A stretch of DNA of 64,000 nt, taken from NCBI GenBank assembly GCA_002773095.1, contig PFCG01000018.1, positions 25,008 through 89,007 of the forward strand. The letters are read 5' to 3'. A program made the translations under genes and the position numbers. How positions within the stretch are numbered: the stretch's first letter is position 1; each line of letters starts with the position of its first letter. Source of the DNA: Candidatus Moranbacteria bacterium CG10_big_fil_rev_8_21_14_0_10_35_21. Lineage in GTDB: Bacteria; Patescibacteriota; Minisyncoccia; Moranbacterales; UBA2206. Below, piece after piece: positions 4,724-54,137 of the stretch. The notes beneath the pieces are model-generated. The model ran no database searches. It was not told where the DNA came from and saw only the letters and a list, made by a program, of their open reading frames with translations.

Positions 4724-4735
4724 GGAATTTTATTA

Positions 4736-8852: not shown

Positions 8853-8872
8853 TTAGCTAATTTTTTAATTTT

Positions 8873-10453: not shown

Positions 10454-10511
10454 TTACTAGCTAGCTAGTAGTTGGTAGTGAGTAGTTTGTAGTAAATTCA
10501 AATTATTTTTT

Positions 10512-12628: not shown

Positions 12629-12632
12629 ATTT

Positions 12633-15270: not shown

Positions 15271-15273
15271 TTT

Positions 15274-15630: not shown

Positions 15631-15638
15631 AAGTAAGA

Positions 15639-17513
15639 TTAATTGGTTTTATTAAAAATAGCTACTTCTGGGCTTAAATAAAGCAAATCAAAATTTCGAC
15701 TTCTTTTAAATTGGTCGCTATCAAAAGCCGGATTAACCGCCAAGAAATTAACGCCCGTCTCCTGAAAGCATTTTTGCCCTTTTTCTGATTCTGGGCTGGA
15801 AATCATCAATAATGTGCATTGTTCACGAGGATTAGTTGAATCTTCGTAGCGCTTAAAAAAACTGCGTGAAAGAGGATAACGATAACCGCGCATAAAAAAC
15901 AATTTCATCCACGCGTCGCCGGTTATATAATTATGATCTTTAAGCACATTATCGGTAGGAGTGGTATTCTTGGCTAAATATTCAGTAGCGTTAAAAGTTT
16001 GTATAAGTTCAGCGGTTTCCACCTTTCTTTTAAAAGCGGCGGCCGAATCATAAAGCCCTCCTACTAAAACAAAGGTTAAAATAATCACAAAAGTCAACTT
16101 GGCCAAAGTTCCGGAAACATAATTTTTAAATTGGGAAAAAATTATGAAAAAAGAATAGGCGCTTAAAATAGCCAGGGGATAGGAAAGATAATTACCAATT
16201 CGATTACTAGGCAAATCAAGAAGGAGCCATTGTGGCCTAGTAGCCATTAAAAATATAGCCAAAAACCAGGCCACTAAAATCGCATAACCAACATTTTTTT
16301 TCTTGAAATTAAGCACCATCAACAAAAGGGCAAATAATCCCAAGGCTAACCGAGGTTCGCCAACAGCCGATTTCAAGTTATTTAAACTTAATCCAGTTCT
16401 GGTTATTTTTTCTGGTGTGCCCACCGCCGTTTCAACGGAATTATTTTTTATATAATTAGGCGTAAAAACCAAAAGAAAAAAGATTAACCCAATGGCCAGA
16501 GCCGACAATACTGGAGGAGAAAAAACCAACTTCCTGATTTTAACAAATATTTCTTTTAGATTTTTGAGATTAACTGCCAAAAAAATCAGGATAGTAAAAA
16601 TAAAGACAAAAATGAAAATAAAAGCGGTCAAATGATGAGTATAGAATAATCCGAAGGTGATAAAAACTGCTAAAGCCAAAAATTTTCTAGCCAAGGAAAG
16701 GGTTAGGGATTCGTTTTGAAAAAAATCAAAGGCTCGAAAATAAAAATAAAGAGCCACTGGCATCAAAAAATTTCCAAAAATATTTCCAATTACTCCTCCA
16801 CTGACGAATTTTGACTGGGGAGAGGCAACCGCATAAAGAACACCCAAAAAAAGTAGTGACAGAATGGCAGTATTTTTATTTTTGAAAATTCGCAGCACCA
16901 AAAGAAAAACCGCTAAAATTCCCATCAAATTTATTAAGTGTAAGATAACCGTCGGAAAAGCAGAAAAAAAGCTCGCTCCACTAATGAGATTAACTATTCC
17001 AAAAACAATATGTTCGCCAATAATAAAATCTGGCATACCTTCATAGGTCGGTAGTTGTCCACTTTCAGCCATCCATTTGGCCCAATACATATGATGACCC
17101 ATATCGGTGGCGGTCGGCAAAATAGTTTGAGTAAGATAGGCTGTTTTTATAAAAAAAGTTAGAAAAAGCAGAACAGCTACCAACCAAAACTGGCGAGAAG
17201 AAAAATCAAAAATTTTCTCTTCTTTACTTTCAGAAAATTTGCGTAGCTTAAAAATAATCAAAAAAATAGCTGAAACCAAAACAATTCCGAAAATAGAAGA
17301 AGATCGAGTAATGGAAATTTGCAGTCGACTATAAACAAAAAAAATAAAATCAACCACCACTAAGCTCAAAGCAGGTGAGAGAATGAATTTTTCTATTTTT
17401 TCCAAACCGCCCTTTTTCCCAAAAATAGCCAACAGCAAAAAATACCCAGGCAAAAATAACACCAGAATTATGGCTAGATAGAATAATACTTGTGATTGAA
17501 TAAAAGTTAACAT
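15639..17513 (-). CDS. Large polytopic membrane protein of unknown function (possible GT-C-type glycosyltransferase or polymerase)
   Basis: About 14 TM helices and a conserved-looking loop TATDMGHHMYWAKW. It has a C-terminal soluble domain and is embedded in the glycosylation locus. Confidence 0.45.
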   Translation of the reverse strand: MLTFIQSQVLFYLAIILVLFLPGYFLLLAIFGKKGGLEKIEKFILSPALSLVVVDFIFFVYSRLQISITRSSSIFGIVLVSAIFLIIFKLRKFSESKEEKIFDFSSRQFWLVAVLLFLTFFIKTAYLTQTILPTATDMGHHMYWAKWMAESGQLPTYEGMPDFIIGEHIVFGIVNLISGASFFSAFPTVILHLINLMGILAVFLLVLRIFKNKNTAILSLLFLGVLYAVASPQSKFVSGGVIGNIFGNFLMPVALYFYFRAFDFFQNESLTLSLARKFLALAVFITFGLFYTHHLTAFIFIFVFIFTILIFLAVNLKNLKEIFVKIRKLVFSPPVLSALAIGLIFFLLVFTPNYIKNNSVETAVGTPEKITRTGLSLNNLKSAVGEPRLALGLFALLLMVLNFKKKNVGYAILVAWFLAIFLMATRPQWLLLDLPSNRIGNYLSYPLAILSAYSFFIIFSQFKNYVSGTLAKLTFVIILTFVLVGGLYDSAAAFKRKVETAELIQTFNATEYLAKNTTPTDNVLKDHNYITGDAWMKLFFMRGYRYPLSRSFFKRYEDSTNPREQCTLLMISSPESEKGQKCFQETGVNFLAVNPAFDSDQFKRSRNFDLLYLSPEVAIFNKTN

Positions 17514-17526
17514 AAAGTACTAATTT

Positions 17527-18642
17527 TTAATTAGAAATTGTCTTTTTTATTTCTTCCAAATATTTTTGGGAAATCTTATCCCAACTATAATTTTCGATAA
17601 TAAATTGCCGAGCCTTTTCTCCAAATTCTTTCCTCGAAAAATTATCTGACAAAGTTTCGTTAATTTTATTTATCCAGGCTTCGGCATTTTCCGATTCAAC
17701 CAAAAAACCATTTTGCCCATCTATTATAGCATCTTTTAGTCCTTCAAGATTGGAAGCTAGAACAACTTTTCCGCAAGCTCCGGCTTCAATGGCCGTAATT
17801 CCAAATCCTTCCATTGATCCTGCCACTTTTATGTTGGGGGAAACATAAAGGTCGCAAGTACTGAATAATATTTTCATGTCAGGACGCTGCAGATTAGTCA
17901 GCAAAATAACGCGCTTGGACAAATTCAAATCCTGAACTGCTTTCTCAATATTTTCATAATCATTAGTGTCTCCAGTTGTTTTTTTAGCTACCATTCCTCC
18001 GGCGACTACTAAAATATAATTTTCAGACAATCTAGGCATAACATTGCGCACAAACCAATCAACTCCTTTGTGTTTTACAAATCTCCCTCCTCGGAAAATT
18101 ATTTTTTTGCCTTCAAGATTTCTCCCTAGCAATTTTTCCAAATCAGGTCTGGAGTGATTTTCACAAACTTCATTCGCGTCCAATCCATTGGGAATAAAAA
18201 CGCACTTATCCTTCGGTATGCCAATTTTCACCGCTTCATTAATAGTCTCATTTCCCACCATTATTAATTTATCCATCTTTTTTTCAGAAGGAATATTCAC
18301 AAATTTATAAATTTTTCCAAAAAAAGAATTTTTTGAAGCATAAGTAATATCTAAACCATGAACGATACAAAAATATTTTTGCTTTCGATAAAAAAATTTC
18401 ATCACTGCGCCAATTGGAGACAGAACTCCGTCGCCGAAAACTATCGCATCATAGGACGGAATCAGAAAAAATAATTTCAATGTAAGCCACGGTAAAAAAA
18501 GAGGCAGAAATTTTTTGCCTTTTTTATTTGCGATTATTTTGGTTTCTGTTAGTTTTCCAAGAGCCTTGGCAATGCCATAATTTTGCATTTCAATTCCACC
18601 CACCACTGGAGGATAAGCCCGAGAAATGAAAAGTATTTTCAT
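17527..18642 (-). CDS. GT4-family glycosyltransferase
   Basis: MKILFISRAYPPVVGGIEMQ and SMEGFGITAIEAGACGKVVLASNLEGLKDAIIDGQNGFLVE (E-x7-E). Confidence 0.8.
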   Translation of the reverse strand: MKILFISRAYPPVVGGIEMQNYGIAKALGKLTETKIIANKKGKKFLPLFLPWLTLKLFFLIPSYDAIVFGDGVLSPIGAVMKFFYRKQKYFCIVHGLDITYASKNSFFGKIYKFVNIPSEKKMDKLIMVGNETINEAVKIGIPKDKCVFIPNGLDANEVCENHSRPDLEKLLGRNLEGKKIIFRGGRFVKHKGVDWFVRNVMPRLSENYILVVAGGMVAKKTTGDTNDYENIEKAVQDLNLSKRVILLTNLQRPDMKILFSTCDLYVSPNIKVAGSMEGFGITAIEAGACGKVVLASNLEGLKDAIIDGQNGFLVESENAEAWINKINETLSDNFSRKEFGEKARQFIIENYSWDKISQKYLEEIKKTISN

Positions 18643-18648
18643 AAAAAA

Positions 18649-19599
18649 TTATTTCTTGTATTTTTCCTTGCGCAGAAGATACATTTGGTCTTCCGATATT
18701 TTGCGATTGTTTTTAATCATATCCGCCATCAAAGCGAAAACTAAAAATTGCAGACCAACTAAAAGAAAAGTTATAGCCACTAAAAGAAAATTTTTATAGG
18801 GAGTGATTTTGAAATCCTGAAAATACATTAAAATAAAATAAATAAAGAAGCCCGCTGAAATCAAAATCATTATCAAAGAGGGGATACCGAAAAATTTCAT
18901 CGGACGCACATCACGCACCGCTTTTAAAATTATGCGAGCACTATTATTGACATAGTTGTAAACACTTTTTACCACTCGAGATTTTCTTCCGTCAAAATAA
19001 ATCACTTCTACCGGAACCCACTGAACTTTTAGATTTTTTCCAATGGCATCAATGATGGTTTCTTGGGTATAAGTAAAATTTCCCGGCAGGTTCAAGCGCA
19101 ATAAAGCCTCTTGGGAATAAGCGCGAAATCCGCAAGTCAAATCATTAATCTTATGATTCATAAACTTTCCGATAATCCATGCTGCCATGCGATTAAGATG
19201 ATATTTGGATCTGGGCATATTTTTTGCTTCATGATCTCCAAAGCGATCAGCGCTCACAATATCAGCCTTTCCCGCTAAAATCGGAGCTATTATTTTTTGA
19301 ATATCATTAGAATCAAATTGTCCATCCGCATCAATATTAACCATAATATCAGCCCCATTACGCAACGCCTTTCCAACCGAGGTTCTAAAAGTAATCCCGA
19401 TACCCCGATTAACCGGATGAGAAAAAACAAAATCAGCGCCAGCTTCGCGAGCTCTTTGAGCAGTTTGATCTTTTGATCCGTCATCAATAACCTGCATAAA
19501 AACCTCATTCACGCCTTCGATTTGCCGAGGAATTTTTTTAATGGTTTCGGCAATTTTATCCTCTTCATTAAACGCTGGAATATTAACAACTAATTTCAT
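18649..19599 (-). CDS. GT2 polyprenol-phosphate glycosyltransferase (DPM1 / GtrB / ArnC-like): donor-lipid synthase for the GT-C enzymes
   Basis: VVNIPAFNEEDKI...DDGSKDQTAQ, which is a GT2 DxD-type catalytic domain, followed by two C-terminal TM helices (LVAITFLLVGLQFLVFALMADMI). Confidence 0.8.
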   Translation of the reverse strand: MKLVVNIPAFNEEDKIAETIKKIPRQIEGVNEVFMQVIDDGSKDQTAQRAREAGADFVFSHPVNRGIGITFRTSVGKALRNGADIMVNIDADGQFDSNDIQKIIAPILAGKADIVSADRFGDHEAKNMPRSKYHLNRMAAWIIGKFMNHKINDLTCGFRAYSQEALLRLNLPGNFTYTQETIIDAIGKNLKVQWVPVEVIYFDGRKSRVVKSVYNYVNNSARIILKAVRDVRPMKFFGIPSLIMILISAGFFIYFILMYFQDFKITPYKNFLLVAITFLLVGLQFLVFALMADMIKNNRKISEDQMYLLRKEKYKK

Positions 19600-19666
19600 A
19601 TATTTTAGATCCTGAGACTCGTTTCGTCATTTAATAAAGACGAAATTGGCTCAGGATGACCAGAGG

Positions 19667-19897
19667 TCATTTTTTCTTAATGATTAATTTAGGATCCACA
19701 CAATTGATATCACACTGGGCATTCTTAGTTCCGTTCTCAATCAGATTTTGAGTGCAAATATCAAGATTGGTTTTGCATTTGGCTTTGCTCTGATTAAAAT
19801 AATCCATATTATATTCATAACCAAAATAATTCAAAACAAAAGCTGAAACCACAATCAGCCCAACAATCCAAACTATTAATTTAATTAATCTGAACAT
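19667..19897 (-). CDS. Small Cys-rich membrane-anchored hypothetical protein
   Basis: N-terminal TM (LIKLIVWIVGLIVVSAFVL) and six Cys residues in 40 aa (CKTNLDICTQN...CDINC). Confidence 0.3.
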   Translation of the reverse strand: MFRLIKLIVWIVGLIVVSAFVLNYFGYEYNMDYFNQSKAKCKTNLDICTQNLIENGTKNAQCDINCVDPKLIIKKK

Positions 19898-19964
19898 ATA
19901 ATTTTAATATTAATTTCAAAATCCAACATCCATACTTCGTAACTCATAATTCTTACTTCGTAAT

Positions 19965-21242
19965 TCATCTCCCTATCCCTTTATATATTATACCAAGTTT
20001 TCGGATTTTGTCCTTATCCAAACAATTCTTTCCATCTACAATAACTTTAATGCCAAACTTTTTAAAAATTTTTGGATTAATTTCCACAAATTCTTTATGA
20101 TCAGTCACTACCAAAACTGCGTCCGAATTTTCCAAAAGTTCTTCCAAAGATTTCACTGTGGATTTATTTTTAACATGCGGATCAAAAGAATTATATTTAG
20201 TTTTATATTCTTCCAATAATTTGATGATTTTAAAATAGGGGGATTCACGCATATCATCCACATTGGCCTTGTAGGAAATTCCCAACACTCCCACTCGCAC
20301 ATTTTTCATTGGCTTACCAGCCAAGTTTAATGCATCTTGTAACAATTCCACTGTATAGTTCGACATAGAATTATTGATTTTTCTAGCCAACTTTAAGAAA
20401 TCATGACTAAAACCAGAAAGTTTGGCTCGTTCAATTAGATAATATGGATCTACTGGGATGCAATGTCCACCTACTCCACAAGAGGGGAAATGAGCCATAA
20501 AGGCAAACGGTTTAGTGGCGGCACCTAGAATCACATCCTTCACATCAATATCCATTTTTTCAAACGATCTGGCCAACTCATTCACAAAAGCAATGTTAAT
20601 ATCTCGAAAAGAATTTTCCACAATTTTGACCGCTTCAGCTTCACGAATGGATTTCATCGGGCGAATAGCACCATCCACAATACTTTCATAAAATTCTTTG
20701 GCTATTTTTAATCCTTTAGCATCGAATGATCCAACCACGCGGGGGATATTAGTGACATTCCATTTTTTGTCACCGGGATTGATTCTTTCTGGACAGTGGG
20801 CCAGAAAAACATCTTTCCCAATTTCATATCCCGCTTTTTCAAATATTGGTTTAACCACTTCTTCTGAAACTCCCGGATTAACTGTTGATTCCAAAACCAC
20901 CAAAGCGCCTTTTTTTAAATTTCGTGCTACCGCTTCAGAAGCGCCAATAACTGGACTCAAATCTGGGTAAAATTTTTTGTCCACTGGGGTGGGAACGCAA
21001 ATCAAAACAATATCTGCTTCTTTAATTATTTTTTCGTCTGTTGAAGCCTTAACTTTAAATTTCGGCAAATTTTCTTCTAGAAATTTTTCTTCAATGGGAC
21101 TTTTTCCTTGATTAATCAAATCCACTTTCCGTTGATTCATTTCCAATCCTAGAATTTTATAGCCTTTTTCTGAACAACGCACTGCCAAAGGCAATCCCAC
21201 ATATCCCAAGCCAACAACGCAAACTGTTTTCTTTTGCTTCAT
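19965..21242 (-). CDS. Nucleotide-sugar dehydrogenase (UDP-GlcNAc / UDP-ManNAc 6-dehydrogenase, WecC/WbpA-like)
   Basis: NAD fold VCVVGLGYVGLPLAV. Catalytic Cys region CGVGGHCIPVDPYYL. C-terminal UDP-binding domain. Confidence 0.8.
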   Translation of the reverse strand: MKQKKTVCVVGLGYVGLPLAVRCSEKGYKILGLEMNQRKVDLINQGKSPIEEKFLEENLPKFKVKASTDEKIIKEADIVLICVPTPVDKKFYPDLSPVIGASEAVARNLKKGALVVLESTVNPGVSEEVVKPIFEKAGYEIGKDVFLAHCPERINPGDKKWNVTNIPRVVGSFDAKGLKIAKEFYESIVDGAIRPMKSIREAEAVKIVENSFRDINIAFVNELARSFEKMDIDVKDVILGAATKPFAFMAHFPSCGVGGHCIPVDPYYLIERAKLSGFSHDFLKLARKINNSMSNYTVELLQDALNLAGKPMKNVRVGVLGISYKANVDDMRESPYFKIIKLLEEYKTKYNSFDPHVKNKSTVKSLEELLENSDAVLVVTDHKEFVEINPKIFKKFGIKVIVDGKNCLDKDKIRKLGIIYKGIGR

Positions 21243-21378
21243 AAAAAATGGCCATTAATTATTATTTTATAATGTTTACAGTATATCAAAAAAACTTGTT
21301 CTAGTAAAATATCCTCCCTAAAGGAAATCCATATCCCTTGAAATTCGTTTTTCTAAAATTAAATCATTATTTCACCTG

Positions 21379-21422
21379 AAAATAGAGACTTCCATAGAGG
21401 CCTCTATGGAAGTCTCTATTTT
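21379..21422. repeat. Perfect 44-bp palindrome in a divergent intergenic region
   Basis: aaaatagagacttccatagagg|cctctatggaagtctctatttt is fully self-complementary with an A-run on one side and a T-run on the other. Confidence 0.9.
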
Positions 21423-21671
21423 AGTTGACATCTTCCTTTTGATGTGCTACTTTTCTCTATTAAAAAATAGCTGCTTTTTTATGGGAGAAACAGACAAACT
21501 AGAAATTGCCTTTCATCTATTTATTTTTTTGGCCGTAATCGTTACGACTGGAATTTTTGGATATTACGCCGTTTCTTTAGCCGTAATGTTTTTAGTATAA
21601 ATATTTCATTTCATTTAAGTCGCTTACTCTTGCAACTTTTTATTTTCCCAAAAATGATATAAAATAGAGTA

Positions 21672-22832
21672 ATGAAAATCGGAATTAACGCGTCGTTTGT
21701 GCGCAAGGAGAATACGGGAATTGGACAGGTAACGATTAATTTCCTCAGGAAATTAATCGTGCAACATGAAACATGCAACATGAAACATGAGTTTGTTTTG
21801 TATTTGGAAGAGGATTTTGATTTAGACTTACCAGAAAATATTACCAGGCGCGTATTTTTGCCAATATGGAAACGCGATGATTTGATCCGCAAAATTTGGT
21901 GGGAAAAATATTTATTGCCAAAAATTGTGAAAAAAGATGGATGTGATATTTTTATTAGTTTATACCAATGCACTACCATATTACCTAATAAGGTAAAGCA
22001 CTTGATGGTGGTTCAAGATATTATTCCGAAACTTTTTCCTGAATATCTCAATAATTCACGCAAGCGATATTATTGGAATTTAACAGAAAAAGCCATTGAT
22101 AAAGCAGATAAAATTGTAGCTATCTCTAAACGGACTGAAAAAGATTTGATTCAACACCTAGTTATTGAGGCAAAAAAAATAGCCACTAATTATCTGGATG
22201 TAGATGAAATTTACAAAAAAAAGGTTTCCATTGAAACCAACGCTCGGGTTTTAAAAAAATATAAATTAGCTCCCGGCTATATTTATCACGGTGGGGGATT
22301 GGATGTCAGAAAAAATACGGAAAGTGTTATTCGCGCCTACAAGATTCTTCGGGATAAATTTTCCAGAAGCTTCTATGGCCACTTTCCTAAATTGGTAATT
22401 TCTGGAAAGCTACGACCTGAAATGGCACCTTTGATCACTGACGTAAAAAAAATTTCCAGAGAGCTCAATTTAACCAAAGAAATAAAATTTATTGGTTTTG
22501 TTCCGCAAAAAAGTTTACCCGCTATTTATAAGAATGCTTCAATGTTTGTCTATCCTTCCAAATATGAAGGGTTTGGCCTACCAATTTTAGAAGCTATGAA
22601 TCAAGGCACTCCAGTTATTACAGCTAAAACTTCTTCCTTGCCAGAAGTAGGAGGCGACGCGGTGCTTTATTGCAATCCTGATGATATTTATGAGTTGGTA
22701 ATGATAATGAAAAATGTTTTGACGAATGAAGATTTGCGTCGAACTCTTTCCGAAAGAGGAAAAGAAAGAGCCAAAAATTTTTCTTGGAATAAATTTGTCA
22801 AAAAAGTTTTGAATATTGTGGAAAATTTATAA
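21672..22832 (+). CDS. GT4-family glycosyltransferase
   Basis: N-terminus MKIGINASFV...TGIGQVTINFLRKL and YEGFGLPILEAMNQGTPVITAKTSSLPEVGGDAVLY. Confidence 0.8.
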   Translation: MKIGINASFVRKENTGIGQVTINFLRKLIVQHETCNMKHEFVLYLEEDFDLDLPENITRRVFLPIWKRDDLIRKIWWEKYLLPKIVKKDGCDIFISLYQCTTILPNKVKHLMVVQDIIPKLFPEYLNNSRKRYYWNLTEKAIDKADKIVAISKRTEKDLIQHLVIEAKKIATNYLDVDEIYKKKVSIETNARVLKKYKLAPGYIYHGGGLDVRKNTESVIRAYKILRDKFSRSFYGHFPKLVISGKLRPEMAPLITDVKKISRELNLTKEIKFIGFVPQKSLPAIYKNASMFVYPSKYEGFGLPILEAMNQGTPVITAKTSSLPEVGGDAVLYCNPDDIYELVMIMKNVLTNEDLRRTLSERGKERAKNFSWNKFVKKVLNIVENL

Positions 22833-24435
22833 TATGTTTGAACGTTTAAAAAATATTAATAAAATTAAATTAGGGCTTCTGAACACCAATATTTTGTTGG
22901 TTTTCTTTTTGATTTTGCTTTCCAATCTGGGCGTTTTACCTTTCCAAAAAATGGGTGATTTTTTGTTTTTTGTTTTCCTAATTTTGGTTTTCGCTCTTTA
23001 CCGACCTGGTTGGGCCTTTTTATTCTTCATCGGGACCATCGCATTGGAAAATATCAATTTAGCTCCACGGGAAATTGGCATAATGATTCGGCCCTATCAA
23101 TTTTTTGGCACTCTTTCTATTTTGGCTATCGCAATCAGATTTTTGGCCAAGCGCCTTAATTTTCCATTGATTAAATTAAAATGGCCGGATTATTTAATTA
23201 TCCTTTTGGCTATTAGTAGTTTTATGAGTGCTTTCGCTTCACCAGATAAAATGGCTAGTTTAAAGCTGGCTGTTATTTTTCTTTCTTTTGTTTTTCTTTA
23301 TTTTTTGTCTCGGACTTTTATTCAAAATGCAGATGATTTGAAAAGAATTGTTCCTTTTTTCCTAAGTTCTTCCCTAATAATTATTTTTTATGGTATTTGG
23401 CAGAATATTCAATTTATTTTCGGCGGTAATGCCTTTGAAACTATGCCCGGAAGACCTAATGCCACGTTTTTTGAAGCCGATTGGCTGGGAATGTATTTGG
23501 TACTTTTATTAGCCACCCTATATTCTTTTATTTATTATTTCAATAAAAAATTATCGGCTATTTCTGGAATTATTAACGAAATTATAAATTATAAGCTACA
23601 AAAAATTATTTTATACACAATATATTTAGTACTCACGGCTTCATATATTTTATTAATTCTAACAGTTTCTCGAAGTGCTTGGTTGGGAGCGGCGACAGTT
23701 ACTTTAATTTTTTTGATAATAATTTTAACAAATTTAAAAAGTAACAATTGGAAGTGGAAGTTATTTACAAAAGTACTCCGAAATCTTGCTATAGCCGGAA
23801 TTTGTAGTATTGGGATTGTATATTTTTTCAATCTGACTAGTTTTCAGCTTTTTAATCGCGCACAAAGTACTGGAACAGGATTACAAAAAATTACTATCGC
23901 TTGCGAAAAACGGGTAGTCTTACCTGAAACGATTGCTGATATAGAGGAACTAAAGAAACATGATTGCAAACATATAAATTTAGAGGACATTGAATCAAAT
24001 AAAAGTGCTGGCAAAATAATTATGGAAGTTTACCGCCCGGATCCCAATGTGAATATTCGCCAAGAAATTTATCAAAAGTCCTTGGCAGAAATTAAGGATC
24101 ATCCAATTTTTGGAGTAGGATGGGGGAGCATCGGAAAAGTATTGGGAACTGACGAACGTGGAACAGACCTCAATTCCAGTAATATATTTCTGGAAATATA
24201 TTTAGGATCAGGCGTTGTAGGATTTTTAGCCTTTATTATTGTTTGGATTTATATTTTAGTATCCTCCATTAGAAATTTTTATTCCGCCAAAAATGAACTC
24301 TATAAAACTGTGGCAGCATTCATACTGTTAGGATTAATTGGATTGACTACTGCCAACTTGTTTAATGCCGGGATTCTGCTAGGCTTTATATGGGTCTTTT
24401 TGGCCCTTGGATTGATTAATAAGAAACCATCTTAA
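22816..24435 (+). CDS. O-antigen ligase / polymerase-like membrane protein (Wzy_C / WaaL family)
   Basis: LTVSRSAWLGAATVTL, a large periplasmic loop and HPIFGVGWGS, with about 12 TM helices. Confidence 0.65.
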   Translation: MWKIYNMFERLKNINKIKLGLLNTNILLVFFLILLSNLGVLPFQKMGDFLFFVFLILVFALYRPGWAFLFFIGTIALENINLAPREIGIMIRPYQFFGTLSILAIAIRFLAKRLNFPLIKLKWPDYLIILLAISSFMSAFASPDKMASLKLAVIFLSFVFLYFLSRTFIQNADDLKRIVPFFLSSSLIIIFYGIWQNIQFIFGGNAFETMPGRPNATFFEADWLGMYLVLLLATLYSFIYYFNKKLSAISGIINEIINYKLQKIILYTIYLVLTASYILLILTVSRSAWLGAATVTLIFLIIILTNLKSNNWKWKLFTKVLRNLAIAGICSIGIVYFFNLTSFQLFNRAQSTGTGLQKITIACEKRVVLPETIADIEELKKHDCKHINLEDIESNKSAGKIIMEVYRPDPNVNIRQEIYQKSLAEIKDHPIFGVGWGSIGKVLGTDERGTDLNSSNIFLEIYLGSGVVGFLAFIIVWIYILVSSIRNFYSAKNELYKTVAAFILLGLIGLTTANLFNAGILLGFIWVFLALGLINKKPS

Positions 24436-25580
24436 TGCACATAGGAATAGACATTAGAAATATAGGGAAAAAAAGAACCGGCGATGAGGTGGTGTTTTTT
24501 AATTTAGTAAAGCATTTGGCTTTAATTGACAGTATAAATGAATATTCACTTTTCACAGACATAACCGACACTACCATACTACATAGTATAGTAGTAAAAT
24601 TGGGAGTTGAGTTGAAAAATAATTTTAAAATTATTTCCTTGCCTTGTTCGAATAAATTTGTTTGGAATTTTTGGACATTACCGAAATATTTACGGCGTAA
24701 TCCGGTAGACATTTATCAGACGCAATACATTACTCCATTTTTTGTGCCAAAGAAAGTGAAAATAATCACCATTATTCATGATATTTCTTTTAACTTTTTT
24801 CCTCGATTAATCAAACTTCTTGATCTTATTTTTCTAAAAATTTTTATTCCTATCAGCCTCAAGCGAGCCGAAAAAATTCTGACCGTTTCTCAATTCACTC
24901 GTGATGAAATAATAAATTATTATCACATTCCGAATGAAAAAATAGATTTTTTTTATAATTCCATTTCTGACAATTTTTCCAAACTAGCCACTGATCAAGA
25001 AATGGCTTTGGCTGAGAAAAAATATAATTTACCGGAAAAATTTATTTTTTATATTGGAACTATGCAACTCAGAAAAAATTTATTTTTTTTAATTGAGGCT
25101 TTCGCTAAAATAAAAAATAGATTACCTGGAGTTAAATTGGTTTTAGCCGGAAATAAAGGCGCCCATAATTATGATTCTCAAATTGATATGGTAATAAAAA
25201 AGTATTCTCTGAAAAATGAGGTTATTTTTCCTGGCTTCATTGATGAACAAGATAAATCGGCTGTTTTTCGAAAAGCTCAACTTTTTTGCTTTCCCTCTTT
25301 ATATGAAGGTTTTGGCATTCCCCTTTTAGAGGCTATGAGTCAGGAAGTTCCAGTTCTAGCTTCAGATATTCCCAGCCTACGGGAAGTAGCGGAAAAAGGA
25401 GCTTTATTTTTTAATCCAAAACAGGTTGCTGATTTGTCAGAAAAAATATATAATATTTACAATGATGAAAATTTAAGAAATGCTCTTCGCCAGTCCGGTC
25501 GTGACCGGCTACGGTTTTTTTCTTGGGAAACTGCAGCCGAAAAAATTTTAAATATTTATAACAATTTAATTAAGAAATAA
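24435..25580 (+). CDS. GT4-family glycosyltransferase
   Basis: YEGFGIPLLEAMSQEVPVLASDIPSLREVAEKGALFFNP. Confidence 0.8.
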   Translation: MHIGIDIRNIGKKRTGDEVVFFNLVKHLALIDSINEYSLFTDITDTTILHSIVVKLGVELKNNFKIISLPCSNKFVWNFWTLPKYLRRNPVDIYQTQYITPFFVPKKVKIITIIHDISFNFFPRLIKLLDLIFLKIFIPISLKRAEKILTVSQFTRDEIINYYHIPNEKIDFFYNSISDNFSKLATDQEMALAEKKYNLPEKFIFYIGTMQLRKNLFFLIEAFAKIKNRLPGVKLVLAGNKGAHNYDSQIDMVIKKYSLKNEVIFPGFIDEQDKSAVFRKAQLFCFPSLYEGFGIPLLEAMSQEVPVLASDIPSLREVAEKGALFFNPKQVADLSEKIYNIYNDENLRNALRQSGRDRLRFFSWETAAEKILNIYNNLIKK

Positions 25581-25584
25581 AAAT

Positions 25585-26793
25585 ATGTATTTTACAGAAA
25601 AGTTTTCTGATTCCAATAAACCCGCCCAAGAAAAATTTTATAAAAAAAAGTGGTTTAAAATCGCCGGACCAATTATTCTTATTTTAATCATTGGGGGCTG
25701 TGCGATGGCTTTTAAGACTGGCCTAACTCTGAACAAAATAACTGGTGGAGGCCTTTTGCAGTCTGTCATTCACAATATTCCGGGAGTCAAAAACACTCTT
25801 AAAGGAGAAGAAGATGGTAGAATTAATATTTTACTTTTAGGTATGCGTGGAGAAAATGTCCCCGGAGGAGGACTTTTAGCCGACACTATTATGGTGGCTA
25901 GTATCCTGCCTCAAGAAAATAAGGTAGCTTTAATTTCTATTCCTCGTGATCTTTATGTAAACAATCCCGGTTGGGCCAATAAAAGTAAAATTAATGCTGT
26001 TTATGCGGCTGGGGAAGAAAAAGAGAGGAGTAAAGGATTAGCGGATATGAAGCAAGTGGTGGGTGATATTACTGGGTTGCCTATTTATTATGCTTCTAGC
26101 ATTAACTTTAAAGGTTTTTCTGATTTAGTGAATACTTTGGGCGGAATTGAAATAACTCTTAAGGAATCTTTTTCCGAGCCATTACAGTTTAATGAACCCC
26201 ACCCGTGTGATTCTAATGTTTTTACCAAGCCCACTGGAAAATATGAAACCAAAGAAGTGGTTACTAGCCGAAAGTTAGATGGAAGAAAAAGTTACAAAAC
26301 AGAAACTTTTTCTACTTGCACTAATCCGGATATAGAATGTGGTGGCAATTTTTCCCTTCCGGCCGGAACGCAAACTCTTGATGGAGAAACCGCACTCTGT
26401 TATGTTAGATCTCGTACTACTTCCAGTGATTTTGAAAGAGCTAAGCGCCAACAAATTGTAATTCAAAAAATTAGAGAAAAAGGTCTAAGCATTGGAACCC
26501 TGAGTGATTTTTCAAAGATTAGCGGAATGCTAAATAGCTTGGGAGACAACGTTAGAACAGATATGCAAATATGGGAAATTCAAAAACTTTTTGATATTTA
26601 TCGGGAAATGAATAATCCTCAAGTATTTCAACGGGTTTTGGAAAATAGTGGAGAGGAATTCCTTTATAGCCCCAAAGAAAGTAATGGAGCCGGTTATATC
26701 CTTTTGCCTATTGGTGATAACTACGACAAAATTCGTGAGATGGCTGAAAATATTTTCACTTTGCCGGCTCAATCGGATATTGAACCAAAATAA
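25585..26793 (+). CDS. LCP-family (LytR-CpsA-Psr) glycopolymer phosphotransferase with a C-terminal extension
   Basis: An N-terminal TM is followed by RINILLLGMRGENVPGGGLLADTIMVASILPQENKVALISIPRDLYV, the LCP signature. Confidence 0.8.
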   Translation: MYFTEKFSDSNKPAQEKFYKKKWFKIAGPIILILIIGGCAMAFKTGLTLNKITGGGLLQSVIHNIPGVKNTLKGEEDGRINILLLGMRGENVPGGGLLADTIMVASILPQENKVALISIPRDLYVNNPGWANKSKINAVYAAGEEKERSKGLADMKQVVGDITGLPIYYASSINFKGFSDLVNTLGGIEITLKESFSEPLQFNEPHPCDSNVFTKPTGKYETKEVVTSRKLDGRKSYKTETFSTCTNPDIECGGNFSLPAGTQTLDGETALCYVRSRTTSSDFERAKRQQIVIQKIREKGLSIGTLSDFSKISGMLNSLGDNVRTDMQIWEIQKLFDIYREMNNPQVFQRVLENSGEEFLYSPKESNGAGYILLPIGDNYDKIREMAENIFTLPAQSDIEPK

Positions 26794-26804
26794 ACTAAAA
26801 CCTA

Positions 26805-27620
26805 ATGAAGCTTTCCATTATCGTAACCAGTTATAAAAACCCGGGATTGCTTCGGCTTTGTCTTGATTCAATTAAAAATAATCTGACTTTGAGCGATTTT
26901 GAAATAATCGTAGCCGACAGTGAAACAGAAGAAGATACGGAAATCTTAATGAGAGAAAGTTATCCGGAAATAAAATTTTTGCCCAGCCAAAAGAATGTCG
27001 GCTTTCAATTTTTGGTTCGTCGCGGTTTTGAAACTAGTCAGGGAGATTATATTTTTATTCTAAATGGAGATATCATAGCCACTGAGCGATCAATTGAAAA
27101 ACTTCTAGAATATCTGGAAAATAATCCTTCCGTTGGACTAGTTGGACCGAAACTTTTAAATTTTAATGAAACTCTGCAATATTCCTGTTTCCGTTTCTAC
27201 AAACCTACCACCATTATCTACCGCCGAACTTTTTTGGGAAAATTCGGTTTTGCTCAAAAAACCCTTGATTATTTTTTAATGAAGGACTTTGATCGCCAAA
27301 ACACCCGCGAAGTAGATTGGATTATGGGTTCCGCTATTATGACTTCCAGAAAAGCCATAAAAAAAGTAGGTTTAATGGATCCGCGTTTTAAAATGTATTT
27401 AGAAGATACAGATTGGTGCCGACGTTTCTGGAAAAACAGCTACTCAGTAGTTTATTTCCCCAATTCCCAAATGTATCATTACCACGGACGAGGATCAGCT
27501 GGAAAAAATGCTATTCAGCTTCTACTTTCCAATCCTCTCACTTGGCTGCACATTTCTAGCGCCCTAAAATATTTTATTAAATACCTAGGTCAGCCATCTC
27601 CCCATAAAGAAAAACTCTAA
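26805..27620 (+). CDS. GT2-family glycosyltransferase
   Basis: KLSIIVTSYKNPGLLRLCLDSI and EDTDWCRRF, which are GT2 family A motifs. Confidence 0.75.
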   Translation: MKLSIIVTSYKNPGLLRLCLDSIKNNLTLSDFEIIVADSETEEDTEILMRESYPEIKFLPSQKNVGFQFLVRRGFETSQGDYIFILNGDIIATERSIEKLLEYLENNPSVGLVGPKLLNFNETLQYSCFRFYKPTTIIYRRTFLGKFGFAQKTLDYFLMKDFDRQNTREVDWIMGSAIMTSRKAIKKVGLMDPRFKMYLEDTDWCRRFWKNSYSVVYFPNSQMYHYHGRGSAGKNAIQLLLSNPLTWLHISSALKYFIKYLGQPSPHKEKL

Positions 27621-27630
27621 AAAAATACCT

Positions 27631-28896
27631 ATGGAAAATAACTTACCAGAATGCGGTTATAAAAAAACAGGAGAAAAATTTTTAAAAAAATATTTATCTT
27701 TATTTTTTACGCTTTTTTTAATTGTCGCTGGTTATGGTATTGGTTATGAAAAAGGAAAATCATCCATCGATGATTCTCCTAAGCCCATTATTTCTACTAA
27801 CATTGCCAATCAAAAGCCTACTCAAGAACAAAACCTTGATTTTTCCCTTTACTGGAAGGCTTGGGATTTAGTAAAAGAAAAATACGTTGGAAAAAATTCC
27901 ATAGACGCCCAAAAACTTTTGTATGGCTCTATTAATGGTATGCTAAAGGCCACCGGTGATCCTTATATGAATTTTTTTGATCCGGAAGAAACCAAAATTT
28001 TCAATCAAGATATGGAGGGCAGTTTTGAAGGTATTGGAGCAGAATTAGGTATAAAGGATGATATTCTCACCATTATTGCACCATTAGATGAATCTCCAGC
28101 TCAGAAAGCCGGCTTACGCGCAGGAGATAAAATACTAAAAATCGGAGAAAAATTAACTTCCGACACCTCTATTGATGAGGCGGTAGATTTAATTCGCGGG
28201 AAAAAAGGAACCGAAATAAAATTGACCGTTCTTCATCAGGGACAAGACGAAACTGAAGAAATTTCCATTATTCGTGATGTTATTTTAGTAGCCAGTGTCA
28301 AGCTGGAATTTAAGGAAGATAACTTAGCTTATTTAAAAATCAACAAATTTGGAGAAGACACCTTCAAAGAATTTTCCGAAGCAGTCAATAAAATATTATC
28401 TCATAATTCCCCAGGCCTAATTATTGATCTTCGAAACAATCCGGGAGGCTTTTTGGATCAGACAGTTAAAATTGCCGGATTACTTTTGCCCAGAAATTCT
28501 TCAGTGGTCATCGAAGAAGATTATGCTGGAAAAAAAGAAACATTAAAAACTTCCGGAGGAGACAAATTAAGTTCACTCCCAACCGTTATTTTAATTAATG
28601 AGGGCAGTGCCAGTGCCTCGGAAATTTTAGCTGGTGCTTTACACGATAATTTAGGCACTCAAATAATTGGCAAGAAATCTTTTGGTAAGGGAACAGTCCA
28701 AGAATTAATTAGTTTACCTACTAAAACTAGCATCAAAATAACTGTCGCTAAATGGCTAACACCCAAGGAAAATTATATCGATGAAAAAGGTATTAATCCT
28801 GATATAGAAATTGATTTAAGCCTAGATGATTTTAAAAATAATCGCGACCCACAGATGGAAAAAGCCCTAGAAATTCTTAAGGAGAAAATAAATTAG
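27631..28896 (+). CDS. ctpA: Carboxyl-terminal processing protease (S41 family, PDZ-containing)
   Basis: PDZ element GLRAGDKILKIG. S41 motifs TVILINEGSASASEILAGALHD and GKKSFGKGTVQ. Confidence 0.85.
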   Translation: MENNLPECGYKKTGEKFLKKYLSLFFTLFLIVAGYGIGYEKGKSSIDDSPKPIISTNIANQKPTQEQNLDFSLYWKAWDLVKEKYVGKNSIDAQKLLYGSINGMLKATGDPYMNFFDPEETKIFNQDMEGSFEGIGAELGIKDDILTIIAPLDESPAQKAGLRAGDKILKIGEKLTSDTSIDEAVDLIRGKKGTEIKLTVLHQGQDETEEISIIRDVILVASVKLEFKEDNLAYLKINKFGEDTFKEFSEAVNKILSHNSPGLIIDLRNNPGGFLDQTVKIAGLLLPRNSSVVIEEDYAGKKETLKTSGGDKLSSLPTVILINEGSASASEILAGALHDNLGTQIIGKKSFGKGTVQELISLPTKTSIKITVAKWLTPKENYIDEKGINPDIEIDLSLDDFKNNRDPQMEKALEILKEKIN

Positions 28897-28935
28897 CTTC
28901 TTGCCTGAAACTTTTTTTTCGGATATAATGAATAT

Positions 28936-29385: not shown

Positions 29386-29550
29386 ACCCCACACCCAAAA
29401 CATAAACACAAAAATTTTCAGTATAGAACATTATTCCCAATAAAAATATTTGGGTGTAGGGGTAAAGACATATTTTAATAACTAAATCGGCCAAAAAGAG
29501 TCGCAGGGGAAGCGACTTTTTATCGTAAAAATTAATTTTTTAATTCTAAT

Positions 29551-31182
29551 ATGAAAAACCGAAAATACATTTTTGTAGTCGGGGGAGTTATGAGCGGAGT
29601 AGGGAAGGGTATTACCACATCTTCCATTGGCACTATTTTAAAAGCTCGGGGGTTTAAAGTAACCGCCTTAAAAATTGATCCATACATCAATGTTGACGCT
29701 GGCACTATGAATCCCACTGAGCATGGAGAAGTTTTTGTTTTGGATGATGGAGATGAAACCGATCAGGATATGGGAAATTATGAAAGATTTTTAAATGTTT
29801 CTTTGACCCGAGATAACTATATGACTACTGGTCGAGTCTATGAAACAGTTATTCATAATGAAAGAAATTTAAAATATGGAGGTAAATGTGTAGAAGTAGT
29901 TCCGCATATTCCATTAGAAGTTATTCACCGCATTAAAAAAGCTTCCGAAAAAGCTAAATCCGATGTCACTATTATAGAGATTGGTGGCACCGTGGGAGAA
30001 TATCAAAACATTCTTTTTTTGGAAGCGGCTCGTATGATGAAAATAAAACACCAGGAAGATACTCTTTTTGTAATGGTTAGTTATTTGCCAGTGCCCTCCA
30101 AAGTCGGTGAAATGAAAACTAAACCAACTCAATATGCCGTTCGCACCCTCAATGGAACAGGGATTCAACCAGACATAATTATCGCTCGCAGTGAAAATTT
30201 TATTGATCAAAAAAGAAAAGAAAAGATTGCGATGTTTTGCAATATCCCAGAAAAATATGTCATCTCGGCTCCAGACATTGATAGTATTTATGAAGTGCCG
30301 TTAAATTTTGAACACGATGAATTAAGCAAATTAATTCTAAAAAAACTCAATTTAAAATACAAAAAAAGCAATTTAAATGAGTGGGGAAAGTTTGTGGAAA
30401 ATTTCAAAAGTTCACGCACCGAAGTTAAAATTGGAATTGTAGGAAAATATTTTGGAACCGGGGATTTCATTTTGTCCGATGCCTATATCAGTGTAATTGA
30501 GGCCATTAAGCACGCTGCTTACAAAAATGGCTCTCGACCAAAAATAGATTGGATTAACAGTGAAACTTTTGAAAAAAATCCAGAAAAATTAGAAGATTTA
30601 AAAAGTTATGATGGGATAGTCATTCCGGGCGGTTTTGGCGGCCGAGGCATTGAAGGAAAAATTAAAACTATCCAGTTCATTCGGGAAAATAAAATACCTT
30701 TCTTGGGCTTATGCTACGGTATGCAACTAGCTGTTATTGAATTTGCTAGAAATGTTTTAAATTTAAAAGATGCTCATACGACTGAAGTAGAAAGAGAAAC
30801 AAAAAATCCAGTTATTGATATCATGCCAGAACAAAAGAAAAATTTAGAGGATCAAAATTTTGGTTCCACTATGCGCTTAGGAGCTTACCCAGCTATTCTT
30901 ACTAAAGGAACCTTGGCCTTCCGAGCTTATGGAAAAAATAGAATTTCCGAAAGACATCGCCATCGCTGGGAAGTTAATCCGGAATACATCAAGAAATTAG
31001 AAAAAGGCGGAATAATTTTTTCTGGAAAATCTCCTAATCGAAAACTAATGGAGATAATAGAGCTACCTACCGAAACTCATCCTTTTTTTCTAGCCACTCA
31101 ATTTCATCCTGAATTTAAATCCCGTCCTATAAACGCTCATCCGCTTTTTGTTGAATTTATTCGAGCTAGTTTGCAAAAATAA
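29551..31182 (+). CDS. pyrG: CTP synthase
   Basis: KYIFVVGGVMSGVGKGITTSSIG, IDPYINVDAGTMNP and the glutaminase motif GLCYGMQLAVIEFARNVL. Confidence 0.95.
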   Translation: MKNRKYIFVVGGVMSGVGKGITTSSIGTILKARGFKVTALKIDPYINVDAGTMNPTEHGEVFVLDDGDETDQDMGNYERFLNVSLTRDNYMTTGRVYETVIHNERNLKYGGKCVEVVPHIPLEVIHRIKKASEKAKSDVTIIEIGGTVGEYQNILFLEAARMMKIKHQEDTLFVMVSYLPVPSKVGEMKTKPTQYAVRTLNGTGIQPDIIIARSENFIDQKRKEKIAMFCNIPEKYVISAPDIDSIYEVPLNFEHDELSKLILKKLNLKYKKSNLNEWGKFVENFKSSRTEVKIGIVGKYFGTGDFILSDAYISVIEAIKHAAYKNGSRPKIDWINSETFEKNPEKLEDLKSYDGIVIPGGFGGRGIEGKIKTIQFIRENKIPFLGLCYGMQLAVIEFARNVLNLKDAHTTEVERETKNPVIDIMPEQKKNLEDQNFGSTMRLGAYPAILTKGTLAFRAYGKNRISERHRHRWEVNPEYIKKLEKGGIIFSGKSPNRKLMEIIELPTETHPFFLATQFHPEFKSRPINAHPLFVEFIRASLQK

Positions 31183-31230: not shown

Positions 31231-31512
31231 TTATTTAGTAGTCTCTACACTCACAAATCTGCGAGCCACTAACTTTCCAGTAAAACTTCTGACTTTCTTT
31301 AAACTAAATTTTACCAATCCTTCTTTTAAAGCAAAAAGAGTGTCGTCTTCTCCGCGCTTAACATTTTTTCCGGGATGATATTTTGTTCCTCTTTGGCGAA
31401 TAATAATTTGACCAGCCTTAACCGCCTGGTTACCAAAGATTTTTACCCCTAATCGCTTAGAAATAGAATCACGTCCTAATTGAGTTGATCCACCTGCTTT
31501 TCTATGAGCCAT
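31231..31512 (-). CDS. rpmA: Ribosomal protein L27
   Basis: [51 protein letters not shown]. Confidence 0.9.
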
Positions 31513-31580: not shown

Positions 31581-31997
31581 ATGCTGGAAAAAATAAAAGT
31601 TTTTTGGAAGAAAATACAAGAGCAAGAAAAGCCGATTATTCTTGTAATTGCTTTTATTTTAGTTTCAGCCATTTCCTTTGAAATAGGCTTATTACAAGGC
31701 CAGAAATGGGATAGGAGCCCACTCATTATAGAGAAGTCCGCTGTAGCTCAAAATCAAGCCCAGAGGCCAGCCACTTCAGCCAGCGCTTCTGAAGCTCAAA
31801 AATCCGCCCCAGAAGCCCAAATCGCACCCACCAGCACTTCAGACTGCGCTTTCGTCGGTAGCAAAAATTCCGACAAATATCACCTGCCCACCTGCCGTTG
31901 GGCCAAACAAATTAAACCAGAAAATATTGTTTGTTTTAAATCAGGAGAAGACGCTTCCATAAAAGGCTATCAACCAGATAAAAATTGCATCAAATAA
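31581..31997 (+). CDS. Membrane-anchored hypothetical protein with a C-terminal Cys4 Zn-ribbon-like (Ada_Zn_binding-like) domain
   Basis: TM anchor, an Ala/Ser/Gln-rich linker, then CAFVGSKNSDKYHLPTCRWAKQIKPENIVCF...GYQPDKNC. Confidence 0.4.
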   Translation: MLEKIKVFWKKIQEQEKPIILVIAFILVSAISFEIGLLQGQKWDRSPLIIEKSAVAQNQAQRPATSASASEAQKSAPEAQIAPTSTSDCAFVGSKNSDKYHLPTCRWAKQIKPENIVCFKSGEDASIKGYQPDKNCIK

Positions 31998-32018
31998 TAA
32001 TTTTTAATTAAATAAAAA

Positions 32019-32722
32019 ATGACTAAAAAAACTACCATCATATCGCTCGGAGGATCGTTAATTGTTCCAGAAGAAATTGATTGGAAATTTATTGGAAATT
32101 TATCAAAAAATTTAAAAAGACCATTGAAAAATATATTCAAAAAAAACATAAATTTATTATTATCACCGGTGGGGGAAGGATAGCCAGAAAATATGCCGAA
32201 GCTGCTAAAAAAATATACAAAATAGATGACGAGGATAAGGATTGGCTGGGCATTCACGCTACTCGAATGAACGCTCATTTCATCCGGACTATTTTCAAGA
32301 AAGAGGCTCACCCGCGAATTAATAAAAACCCTAACGACTTGGAAGATTTCTATAATTTCAAAGAAAATATTTTAGTAGCTGCTGGTTGGCGTCCGGGCTT
32401 TTCCACAGATTATGATGCCGTTCTTCTGGCCAAATATCTGGGCATAAAAAATATAGTTAATTTTTCTAACGTCAACTACGTCTACACTAAAGATCCCAAG
32501 AAATTTCCAAAGGCTAAAAAAATAAAATCCATCACCTGGAAGGATTTTAGGAAAATTGTCGGTACCAAATGGAAGCCTGGAATGAATATGCCTTTCGACC
32601 CCATTGATTCAAAACTAGCCGAAGAAGAGGATATCACCGTGGCGATTATGAATGGAAAAAATATGAATAATTTAGAAAATTATTTAGATGACAAGACTTT
32701 CAAGGGGACAATTATAAGCTAA
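32019..32722 (+). pseudogene. pyrH: UMP kinase-like (amino-acid-kinase family, archaeal-type PyrH-like) gene interrupted by an 11-bp tandem duplication
   Basis: N-terminus MTKKTTIISLGGSLIVPEEIDWKFI (ATG at 32019). The remainder begins at a TTG at 32081 in another frame (...FIIITGGGRIARKY...AGWRPGFSTDYDAVLLAKYLG). ttggaaattta is present twice in tandem at 32081..32102. Removing one copy restores a single 230-aa ORF. Confidence 0.6.
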
Positions 32723-47192: not shown

Positions 47193-47200
47193 GATTAAAT

Positions 47201-47734
47201 TTATGTCCGTGCACCTACTAGTGCGCGGAAGTCCTGCCGATGGGCACACCTTTTTTTCTTAATCGAACACTTATCCTTCTCTCTGGGTAAATAATCGCTT
47301 CCTACCCCAAAAGCAATAGCCTTAAGCGACAAGGCTCTGTCTAAAGTCGCTACACTTACCTTTCGATCTTCCAAATACTTTTGCGCTTCCCTATGAGCCG
47401 CTCTTATGATTTGGTCATCGACAGTTTCAGACAGTTCTTTTGGATTACCAGTATTTAGACAAAAGCAACATCCTGCTGGAAGTTTTTGTTCACCCTTGAA
47501 ATATTTTTCCAGAAAATTGATAACTTTTTTGGCCGTTCTTTTAACTCCATTTTTTGAGTATTTAGAAATACAATCCAGTTCGTCAATAACTCCTGTTGTA
47601 ATAACAATTATCTTTCTTCTCTTCAGGCCCCTGAGATATTTAGAAAATTTATGTAAAAATACATTCGTATCCCAGAATTCTACTTCCACATTTTTGTAAT
47701 CATATCTTCTGATTTGGCCGTTTGATTTACCCAA
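47201..47734 (-). CDS. PIN-domain protein (putative ribonuclease)
   Basis: Acidic residues in FWDTNVF and IIVITTGVIDELD match the PIN fold pattern. The C-terminal 40 aa are encoded by unusually GC-rich DNA. Confidence 0.45.
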   Translation of the reverse strand: MGKSNGQIRRYDYKNVEVEFWDTNVFLHKFSKYLRGLKRRKIIVITTGVIDELDCISKYSKNGVKRTAKKVINFLEKYFKGEQKLPAGCCFCLNTGNPKELSETVDDQIIRAAHREAQKYLEDRKVSVATLDRALSLKAIAFGVGSDYLPREKDKCSIKKKRCAHRQDFRALVGART

Positions 47735-54059: not shown

Positions 54060-54137
54060 TGGTATTATAAGGATATAGAAAATAATCCAAATTAAATAAA
54101 CTTAGACATTCTGATTAATTTTTTTTAGCATTAGTTT

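Follow-up and report, generated by a model that had tools for sequence, protein, structure and literature searches.

The described systems that come closest to the locus reported here are the archaeal-type kinases of uridine monophosphate (UMP), the reversible duplications of pneumococcal capsule genes, programmed -1 frameshifting and the formation of pseudogenes in host-dependent bacteria. The locus itself is a pyrH-like gene interrupted by an 11-bp tandem duplication in Candidatus Moranbacteria bacterium CG10_big_fil_rev_8_21_14_0_10_35_21 (assembly GCA_002773095.1, contig PFCG01000018.1, positions 25,008 to 89,007 of the forward strand); this whole stretch of 64,000 nucleotides is what we call the window, and all coordinates below refer to it. 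The archaeal-type UMP kinases (TIGR02076; structures 2bmu/2bri from P. furiosus and 2j4j from S. solfataricus) are matched by a full-length protein that scores above the cut-off of the profile after one unit of the duplication is removed. The difference is that the frame is broken here after residue 25, such that the gene as written does not encode this enzyme by standard decoding, and none of the 13 public copies carries an uninterrupted open reading frame (ORF).

In pneumococci, the capsule genes cap3A, cap8E and tts undergo reversible tandem duplications (Waite et al. 2001, 2003, as cited in PMC4243769), with ON and OFF forms both known and interconverting at a measured high frequency. The likeness to our locus is a perfect duplication inside an ORF that creates a frameshift null, revertible in principle by losing one copy, together with the existence of more than one duplication variant at the locus. 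However, a surface structure is affected there, whereas a core enzyme is affected here and only OFF alleles were found in assemblies. Programmed -1 frameshifting, known from dnaX, from transposases of insertion sequence (IS) elements and from phage tail chaperones, shares with the locus a heptamer of the form X_XXY_YYZ in the overlap of ORFs in the 0 and -1 frames, but here the heptamer belongs to a fresh mutation and is accompanied by no stimulatory structure, Shine-Dalgarno-like element or conservation. Pseudogene formation in host-dependent, genome-reduced bacteria is similar in that small indels split otherwise intact genes, and three such cases are found in these 64 kb, each reproduced in independent assemblies; the difference lies in a gene that is normally indispensable and in a lesion that exists in two alleles.

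An 11-bp duplication in an archaeal-type pyrH gene

The unit TTGGAAATTTA occupies 32081..32091 and is repeated at 32092..32102, within the sequence GAAGAAATTGATTGGAAATTTATTGGAAATTTATCAAAA (32070..32108). This confirms the exact 11-bp tandem duplication to which a sequence-only reading of the window had drawn attention. The maximal exact tract of period 11 is made of two copies of ATTGGAAATTT followed by AT (Table 1), and Tandem Repeats Finder delimits a larger array of 2.8 copies with a 95% match at 32073..32103; the array is longer than the exact tract because an older quasi-unit, GAAATTGATTG, sits just upstream. Runs of at least 13 matches at lag 11 were absent from all 200 first-order Markov simulations of the window, and exact tandem duplications with periods of 10-30 appeared at a mean of 0.34 per simulated window.

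The same reading had claimed that the duplication puts the two ends of the gene in different frames, and the ORFs bear this out. The head ORF, in frame 0, begins with MTKKTTIISLGGSLIVPEEIDWKFI; the first 25 residues of its product are genuine UMP kinase, including strand beta1 and the SLGGS sequence of the beta1-alphaA loop, and the 29 that follow are out of frame. Shifted by -1 with respect to the head, the body ORF spans the enzyme from residue 18 on but is devoid of beta1 and of the phosphate-binding beta1-alphaA loop. Deletion of one 11-bp unit joins head and body in a 693-nt ORF, and the seamless amino-acid-kinase protein of 230 aa that had been foreseen is indeed obtained.

We then compared the reconstructed protein with profiles and solved structures. 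It reaches 208.2 bits with the NCBIfam model TIGR02076 (pyrH_arch; cut-off 158.05), covering profile positions 2-221 of 222, whereas the bacterial pyrH model gives only 64.6 bits versus a cut-off of 243.9, and the score with the isopentenyl-phosphate kinase model is far under the cut-off. In Pfam the match is to PF00696 (AA_kinase, 101 bits). The best solved relatives are the UMP kinases of P. furiosus, of the A. fulgidus type and of S. solfataricus, and the alignment with the P. furiosus enzyme (2bmu, E=6e-31) is gapless across the junction. The SLGGS loop, the TGGG motif and all of the 81 columns invariant among 28 Parcubacteria sequences are retained, the invariant columns S9 L10 G11 G12 S13 and G47 G48 G49 being common to 27 homologues. 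On profile score and conserved motifs, the reconstructed protein is predicted with assurance to be an archaeal-type UMP kinase.

The closest full-length relatives, labelled as UMP or uridylate kinases, are proteins of 229-235 aa and 72-80% identity from metagenome-assembled genomes (MAGs) of Moranbacteria, Parcubacteria and Patescibacteria. Around the junction (residues 15-40) the alignment of 119 homologues is gapless, with no insertion or deletion in any of them, and in all 34 related species-representative genomes in which the junction was read the gene is one intact, single-copy ORF. The same GAAATTGATTGGAAATTT, in a single copy, is present in the relatives L027, L044, L046 and L047. As neither homologues nor relatives have an indel at this place, the single copy represents the ancestral state and the duplication is peculiar to this lineage. 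The representative genomes of GTDB hold no exact match that would place the same species among them, and the closest relatives there are at most 77% identical. Our literature searches found no papers on pyrH with a frameshift or a tandem duplication, nor on UMP or uridylate kinase in the candidate phyla radiation (CPR)/Patescibacteria.

Other features were looked for at the site. No DNA hairpin was detected at the repeat (z=+0.40), and a promoter and terminator scan around the pyrH gene yielded nothing above shuffle expectation. A non-coding RNA was ruled out as an explanation, with no Rfam family and no tRNA found anywhere in the window.

Recurrence of the duplication and its two alleles

The 13 public loci were fetched from seven JGI metagenomes (3300004106, 3300004209, 3300004210, 3300008007, 3300025129, 3300025850 and contig Ga0210019_1128478), four ENA assemblies (ERZ27293342, ERZ27293367, ERZ27293414 and ERZ17912254) and two Logan runs (SRR6051181 and SRR5487654); their independence is between libraries and assemblies, and not necessarily between locations. 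The 11-bp insertion is present in 13 of the 13 loci. In 11 of them the junction was read directly, and the other two (L004 and L011), which begin just downstream of the search anchor, also span the repeat since they match the window at 100% identity from 32050 and 32056 on, respectively. An identical 213-aa frameshift product, impossible unless the duplication is present, is called on the 13 public contigs, and the exact 54-aa head product can be found in JGI, Logan and ENA records. From the contig names (k141_, NODE_ and Logan), at least three types of assembly are represented. Over alignments of up to 20.6 kb, the identity of every locus to the window is 99.98-100%, and only five sites in 20.6 kb are polymorphic; the source, a natural population of an uncultured bacterium of the Moranbacteria (Parcubacteria, CPR), is near-clonal. 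The sample IMG 3300025129 is listed as a groundwater geyser in Utah (PMC10159854); at least one sample is from the Crystal Geyser aquifer, Utah, and the consecutive series of accessions suggests a shared site for many of the samples.

We also searched for the single-copy form. At the assembly level it was found in none of the 13 contigs, and a search of about 15 billion public proteins did not find the exact intact 230-aa sequence. Among 5.8 billion protein clusters, the next best match after the frameshift cluster was only 79% identical. A pattern scan with exact flanks and room for 0-22 inserted bases between them returned only the 11-base form in JGI contigs and nothing in GTDB representatives.

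An error of assembly or sequencing in a genome that is truly single-copy was among the options that the sequence-only reading had left on the table. In its favor stands only the general expectation that indels may occur in the consensus sequence of a MAG. Short-read errors, however, are not known to include 11-bp insertions; the identical insertion recurs across separate libraries and several assemblers, and a second allele of the duplication, described below, is itself present in two independent records. We give this option a negligible probability: the frameshift in the MAG is biological, and an artefact is effectively excluded by the same frameshift on 13 contigs.

Units 1 and 2 can be told apart at a single position, and this position is polymorphic. 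Allele A, with T at 32090, is found in the window and in nine loci with a directly read junction, and has the arrangement GAAATTGATTG-GAAATTTATTG-GAAATTTATC. Allele B, with G, is found in L006 and L007 and reads GAAATTGATTG-GAAATTGATTG-GAAATTTATC, such that its middle unit is GAAATTGATTG. Over 8.9 kb, L007 differs from the window at 32090 only, and L006, over 20.6 kb, has one difference besides that one. The perfect period-11 tract extends for 24 nt in allele A and for 28 nt in allele B, and both alleles are perfect 11-bp tandem duplications of the inferred ancestor GAAGAAATTGATTGGAAATTTATC, in registers that differ. A random single-nucleotide polymorphism was rejected as the source of the A/B difference, its chance being about 5 x 1/20642 x 1/3 = 8e-5. 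The single difference between the alleles falls on the base that sets the units apart; the site has thus changed at least twice, probably in events templated by the repeat, in a population that otherwise hardly varies. Allele B would be expected if the strand slipped on GAAATT, the exact 6-nt repeat, and allele A if it slipped after 9 nt (GAAATTTAT on GAAATTGAT), with the mismatch carried into the new unit. The pair could have originated in two independent slippage events, or in one such event followed by repeat-templated conversion through a one-copy or three-copy intermediate.

Probable loss of function, possible switching or recoding

We consider it probable that the duplication is a genuine, recent slipped-strand mutation, which produced a tolerated loss-of-function allele of pyrH that could revert. 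The ancestral codons for E-I-D-W-K-F would have been GAAATTGATTGGAAATTTAT, which hold two GAAATT(G/T)AT quasi-repeats 11 nt apart. In the inferred ancestor, GAAATTGATTG and the GAAATTTAT that follows it make a 9-nt direct quasi-repeat, identical at 8/9 positions and with GAAATT as its 6-nt exact core, and this quasi-repeat may have been the microhomology that templated the slippage: the nascent strand would have slipped back one register in replication, and 11 nt would have been recopied. The insertion shifts residues 26-230, that is, essentially the whole enzyme, into the -1 frame, so that standard decoding gives only the 54-aa head peptide. Were the TTG at 32081 used as a start, the 213-aa body would be made without strand beta1 and without the SLGGS beta1-alphaA loop. 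In solved UMP kinases, it is this loop that touches the transferred phosphate. In the UMP kinase of T. thermophilus, Lys9 and Ser11 of the loop bind the beta-phosphate of uridine diphosphate (UDP) and are conserved (PMC12404492). Judging by its reading frames, the gene as written is most likely a null (OFF) allele of an archaeal-type UMP kinase.

The age of the lesion was approached through the state of the remaining gene. At columns conserved in at least 95% of the sequences, the reconstructed protein departs 3 times from the conserved residue, the mean among homologues being 1.4 (standard deviation 1.4), and 26 of the 119 homologues have at least 3; by this measure of conserved-column deviations, no decay is detectable in the body ORF. 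The lesion is, therefore, young or the frame is still selected, and the recent inactivating duplication put forward by the sequence-only reading gains support from the undecayed remainder of the gene. The two-copy state is the consensus in every public assembly of the population examined. The new perfect repeat of 24-28 nt may itself be unstable, and if one unit were precisely lost, the gene would be intact again. As for the tolerance of such a loss, these host-dependent, genome-reduced bacteria presumably scavenge nucleotides or use another route to UDP, and the two more genes that are reproducibly frameshifted in the 64 kb would fit ongoing gene erosion under weak selection. The lesion is a new instance of an already known kind of mutation.

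Several points weigh against a tolerated loss. Wherever it has been studied in bacteria, UMP kinase has proved essential. Many UDP-sugar enzymes are encoded in the window and its pyrG is intact, from which it follows that the cell needs uridine triphosphate (UTP). No substitute kinase was found within the 64 kb: Pfam scans of 40 other ORF translations disclosed no second UMP/CMP kinase or amino-acid-kinase gene in the window, and only a weak match to the thymidylate kinase family at 12044..12628. The samples possibly all come from one site, in which case fixed means fixed in one population. A null allele of such a gene fixed across all samples is unexpected unless it is compensated, recoded or accompanied by a minority ON allele.

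Unprogrammed low-level slippage is, along with a reversible switch, the main rival of this reading. In the recoding version, the enzyme would still be expressed through -1 slippage at A_AAT_TTA, a formal slippery heptamer in frame 0, or through an RNA polymerase that adds one A in the A8 run located in the overlap of both frames; by inference, this run is the sole conceivable site for a rescue by transcriptional slippage (+1 A). Because a TGA closes the body frame upstream and a TAG ends the head ORF (Table 1), any rescuing shift must fall within 32081..32180, and the heptamer lies in this sole doubly open stretch, is perfect and is present in both alleles. A slip at that point would yield a product of 234 aa, ...DWKFIGNL-IKKFKK..., which exceeds the ancestor by four residues, inserted where helix alphaA begins. 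The downstream ORF is wholly intact, recoding would account for an essential function together with fixation in the whole population, and a slow-growing symbiont might need little UMP kinase. Nevertheless, chance slippery heptamers are to be expected in such A/T-rich sequence, and this one is a by-product of the duplication and not a conserved design: the two-frame arrangement occurs in none of the 119 proteins and none of the 34 genomes. No stem-loop or pseudoknot was found downstream (minimum free energy of 32103..32200, -6.6 kcal/mol vs a shuffle mean of -9.65, z=+1.23), nor a Shine-Dalgarno-like stimulator upstream, where the nearest GGAGG is about 41 nt away in a genome that appears not to use Shine-Dalgarno sequences. 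Efficient transcriptional slippage is known for runs of nine or more, and the A8 run is below that length. Overall, we find continued expression by recoding unlikely. A selected contingency switch, in which one copy is ON, two copies are OFF and the assemblies show the OFF majority of a mixed population, appears to us about equally improbable. The idea of a reversible slipped-strand switch had been raised by the sequence-only reading; the T/G difference at 32090 reveals repeated change of the slippage type, but no single-copy allele was found in public assemblies. The perfect tract in either allele is suited to precise deletion, an allele difference confined to the diagnostic base in a nearly identical background implies that slippage or conversion has recurred, perhaps by way of a single-copy stage, the remainder of the gene is pristine, and there is a precedent for reversible duplications within ORFs (Waite et al. 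2001, 2003, as cited in PMC4243769). Against this, the ON allele was found in none of the 13 contigs and is missing from the proteins searched, so that the coexistence of ON and OFF alleles that marks the pneumococcal type is not seen at the assembly level. Moreover, the array has just two to three units and the ancestral microhomology was short (6-9 nt), for which reason the forward rate should be low; the length of the site is invariant in the 119 homologues and 34 genomes, and turning off a core nucleotide kinase brings no obvious benefit.

A split enzyme has also to be considered, in which the 54-aa head and the 213-aa body started at TTG 32081 would assemble non-covalently into an active kinase. 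Every conserved residue is present across the two ORFs, but the TTG is not an ATG and lacks the A/T-rich leader typical of the starts in the window, the head carries its 29 out-of-frame residues, the EIDWKFI segment, or a variant of it, is duplicated with one copy in each fragment, and no relative among the 34 genomes has a split gene. We find this explanation hardly credible, and a recent and tolerated slipped-strand mutation is still the one that we prefer.

Should the null prove to be really fixed, the population does without the only UMP kinase that can be recognised in it, and the locus would be direct genomic evidence of a CPR bacterium that gets UDP/UTP or a substitute activity externally or from an unrecognised enzyme; it would also be a natural example of gene erosion that has reached a gene essential in free-living bacteria. 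If, instead, the repeat cycles or is read through, it would stand as a rare example of central metabolism subject to phase variation or recoding. That the core UMP kinase gene of a CPR episymbiont is phase-variable, or read through by -1 slippage at A_AAT_TTA, seems doubtful to us; the T and G alleles would then be, under the switch variant, footprints of repeated cycling, and the organism would tune its own UDP supply, or dispense with it, according to uptake from the host. In practical terms, the frameshift in the MAG should stay uncorrected in curation.

Gene neighbourhood and other split genes

The features of the window discussed here are collected in Table 1. The sequence-only reading had put the gene next to pyrG; this needs amending, as the two are separated by rpmA and by a gene for a 138-aa protein. 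In that protein, a hydrophobic segment at the N-terminus is followed by a low-complexity linker of Ala/Ser/Pro/Gln and, at the C-terminus, by a domain similar to Ada-type zinc-binding domains. Most gene starts of the window (e.g. 29526..29553 and 31994..32021) consist of an ATG after an A/T-rich leader, with no Shine-Dalgarno motif, and the organism appears to initiate translation without Shine-Dalgarno pairing.

Table 1. Coordinates of the pyrH locus and of other features of the window.
Feature	Coordinates	Strand	Remarks
Frameshifted archaeal-type UMP kinase gene (pyrH)	32019..32722	+	704 nt as written
Head ORF, frame 0	32019..32183	+	54 aa, ATG start, begins MTKKTTIISLGGSLIVPEEIDWKFI; ORF table
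Older quasi-unit GAAATTGATTG	32073..32083	+	Within Tandem Repeats Finder array 32073..32103
TGA closing the body frame upstream	32078..32080	+	Sequence
Exact period-11 tandem duplication, maximal tract	32080..32103	+	ATTGGAAATTT x2 plus AT; 24 nt
Body ORF, -1 frame relative to head	32081..32722	+	213 aa from TTG; ORF table
Polymorphic base T/G	32090	+	Sole position distinguishing unit 1 from unit 2
A_AAT_TTA, formal X_XXY_YYZ -1 slippery heptamer, frame 0	32096..32102	+	Sequence
A8 run in overlap of both frames	32139..32146	+	Sequence
TAG stop of head ORF	32181..32183	+	ORF table
pyrG (CTP synthase), intact	29551..31182	+	543 aa; PF06418, PF00117; pyrimidine-pathway neighbour, two genes upstream
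rpmA	31231..31512	-	Between pyrG and pyrH
138-aa Ada-Zn-like gene	31581..31997	+	Between rpmA and pyrH; PF02805 22 bits, just under cut-off
GT-C/PMT_2-like glycosyltransferase, split	4316..4723 and 3093..4274	-	135 aa with membrane N-terminus, and 393 aa; frames differ
PIN-domain protein	47201..47734		Prophage-like region
Terminase large subunit	48384..49898		Prophage-like region
Small-terminase-like helix-turn-helix (HTH) protein	49813..50274		Prophage-like region
Two N6/N4 DNA methylases, one fused to ParB_N	50258..52334		Prophage-like region
Large serine recombinase, frameshift-split	52670..54059	+	Resolvase 52670..53326; Recombinase and Zn_ribbon_recom 53283..54059
CDP-archaeol-synthase-like protein	56165..56737		
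CDP-alcohol phosphatidyltransferase	57825..58445		
PEP (phosphoenolpyruvate)-utilising/PPDK-like protein	58442..61036		864 aa
UbiA-family prenyltransferase	60979..61842		

The other two split genes were also followed in public records. In the large serine recombinase, which is contained in a prophage-like or mobile region (47200..54100), the frames meet near GATCCAGATCCGCGCGCC, at about 53290..53310, and the split is also found in ENA ERZ27293386 and ERZ27293412 and in Logan SRR6240784. In the glycosyltransferase, they meet at a T-rich run at about 4320..4345, and the two-ORF arrangement is repeated in Logan SRR6240789 and JGI 3300004106; this is a probable third frameshifted gene. Real frameshift lesions are thus not rare in the genome, which is in keeping with gene erosion in a population that is small, bottlenecked and dependent on a host. 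An exact 14-bp tandem repeat, TGCAACATGAAACA x2, built of 7-bp ACATG(A/C)A units, lies on the forward strand at 21760..21789. It was rejected as a second lesion of the kind found in pyrH, as it keeps the frame and lies close to the 5' end of a GT4 glycosyltransferase gene (21672..22832) that is intact.

A very large region for cell-envelope glycosylation extends over 1..28900. It includes two UDP-glucose/GDP-mannose dehydrogenases, at least seven GT4/GT2 glycosyltransferases and three GT-C proteins of the PMT_2 type, and also a Wzy-like polymerase, a flippase and a LytR-CpsA-Psr protein; this implies a heavy demand for UDP-sugars in an organism with a broken UMP kinase gene. At the other end of the window, the cluster at 56165..61842 (last four rows of Table 1) has an archaeal flavor for a bacterium.

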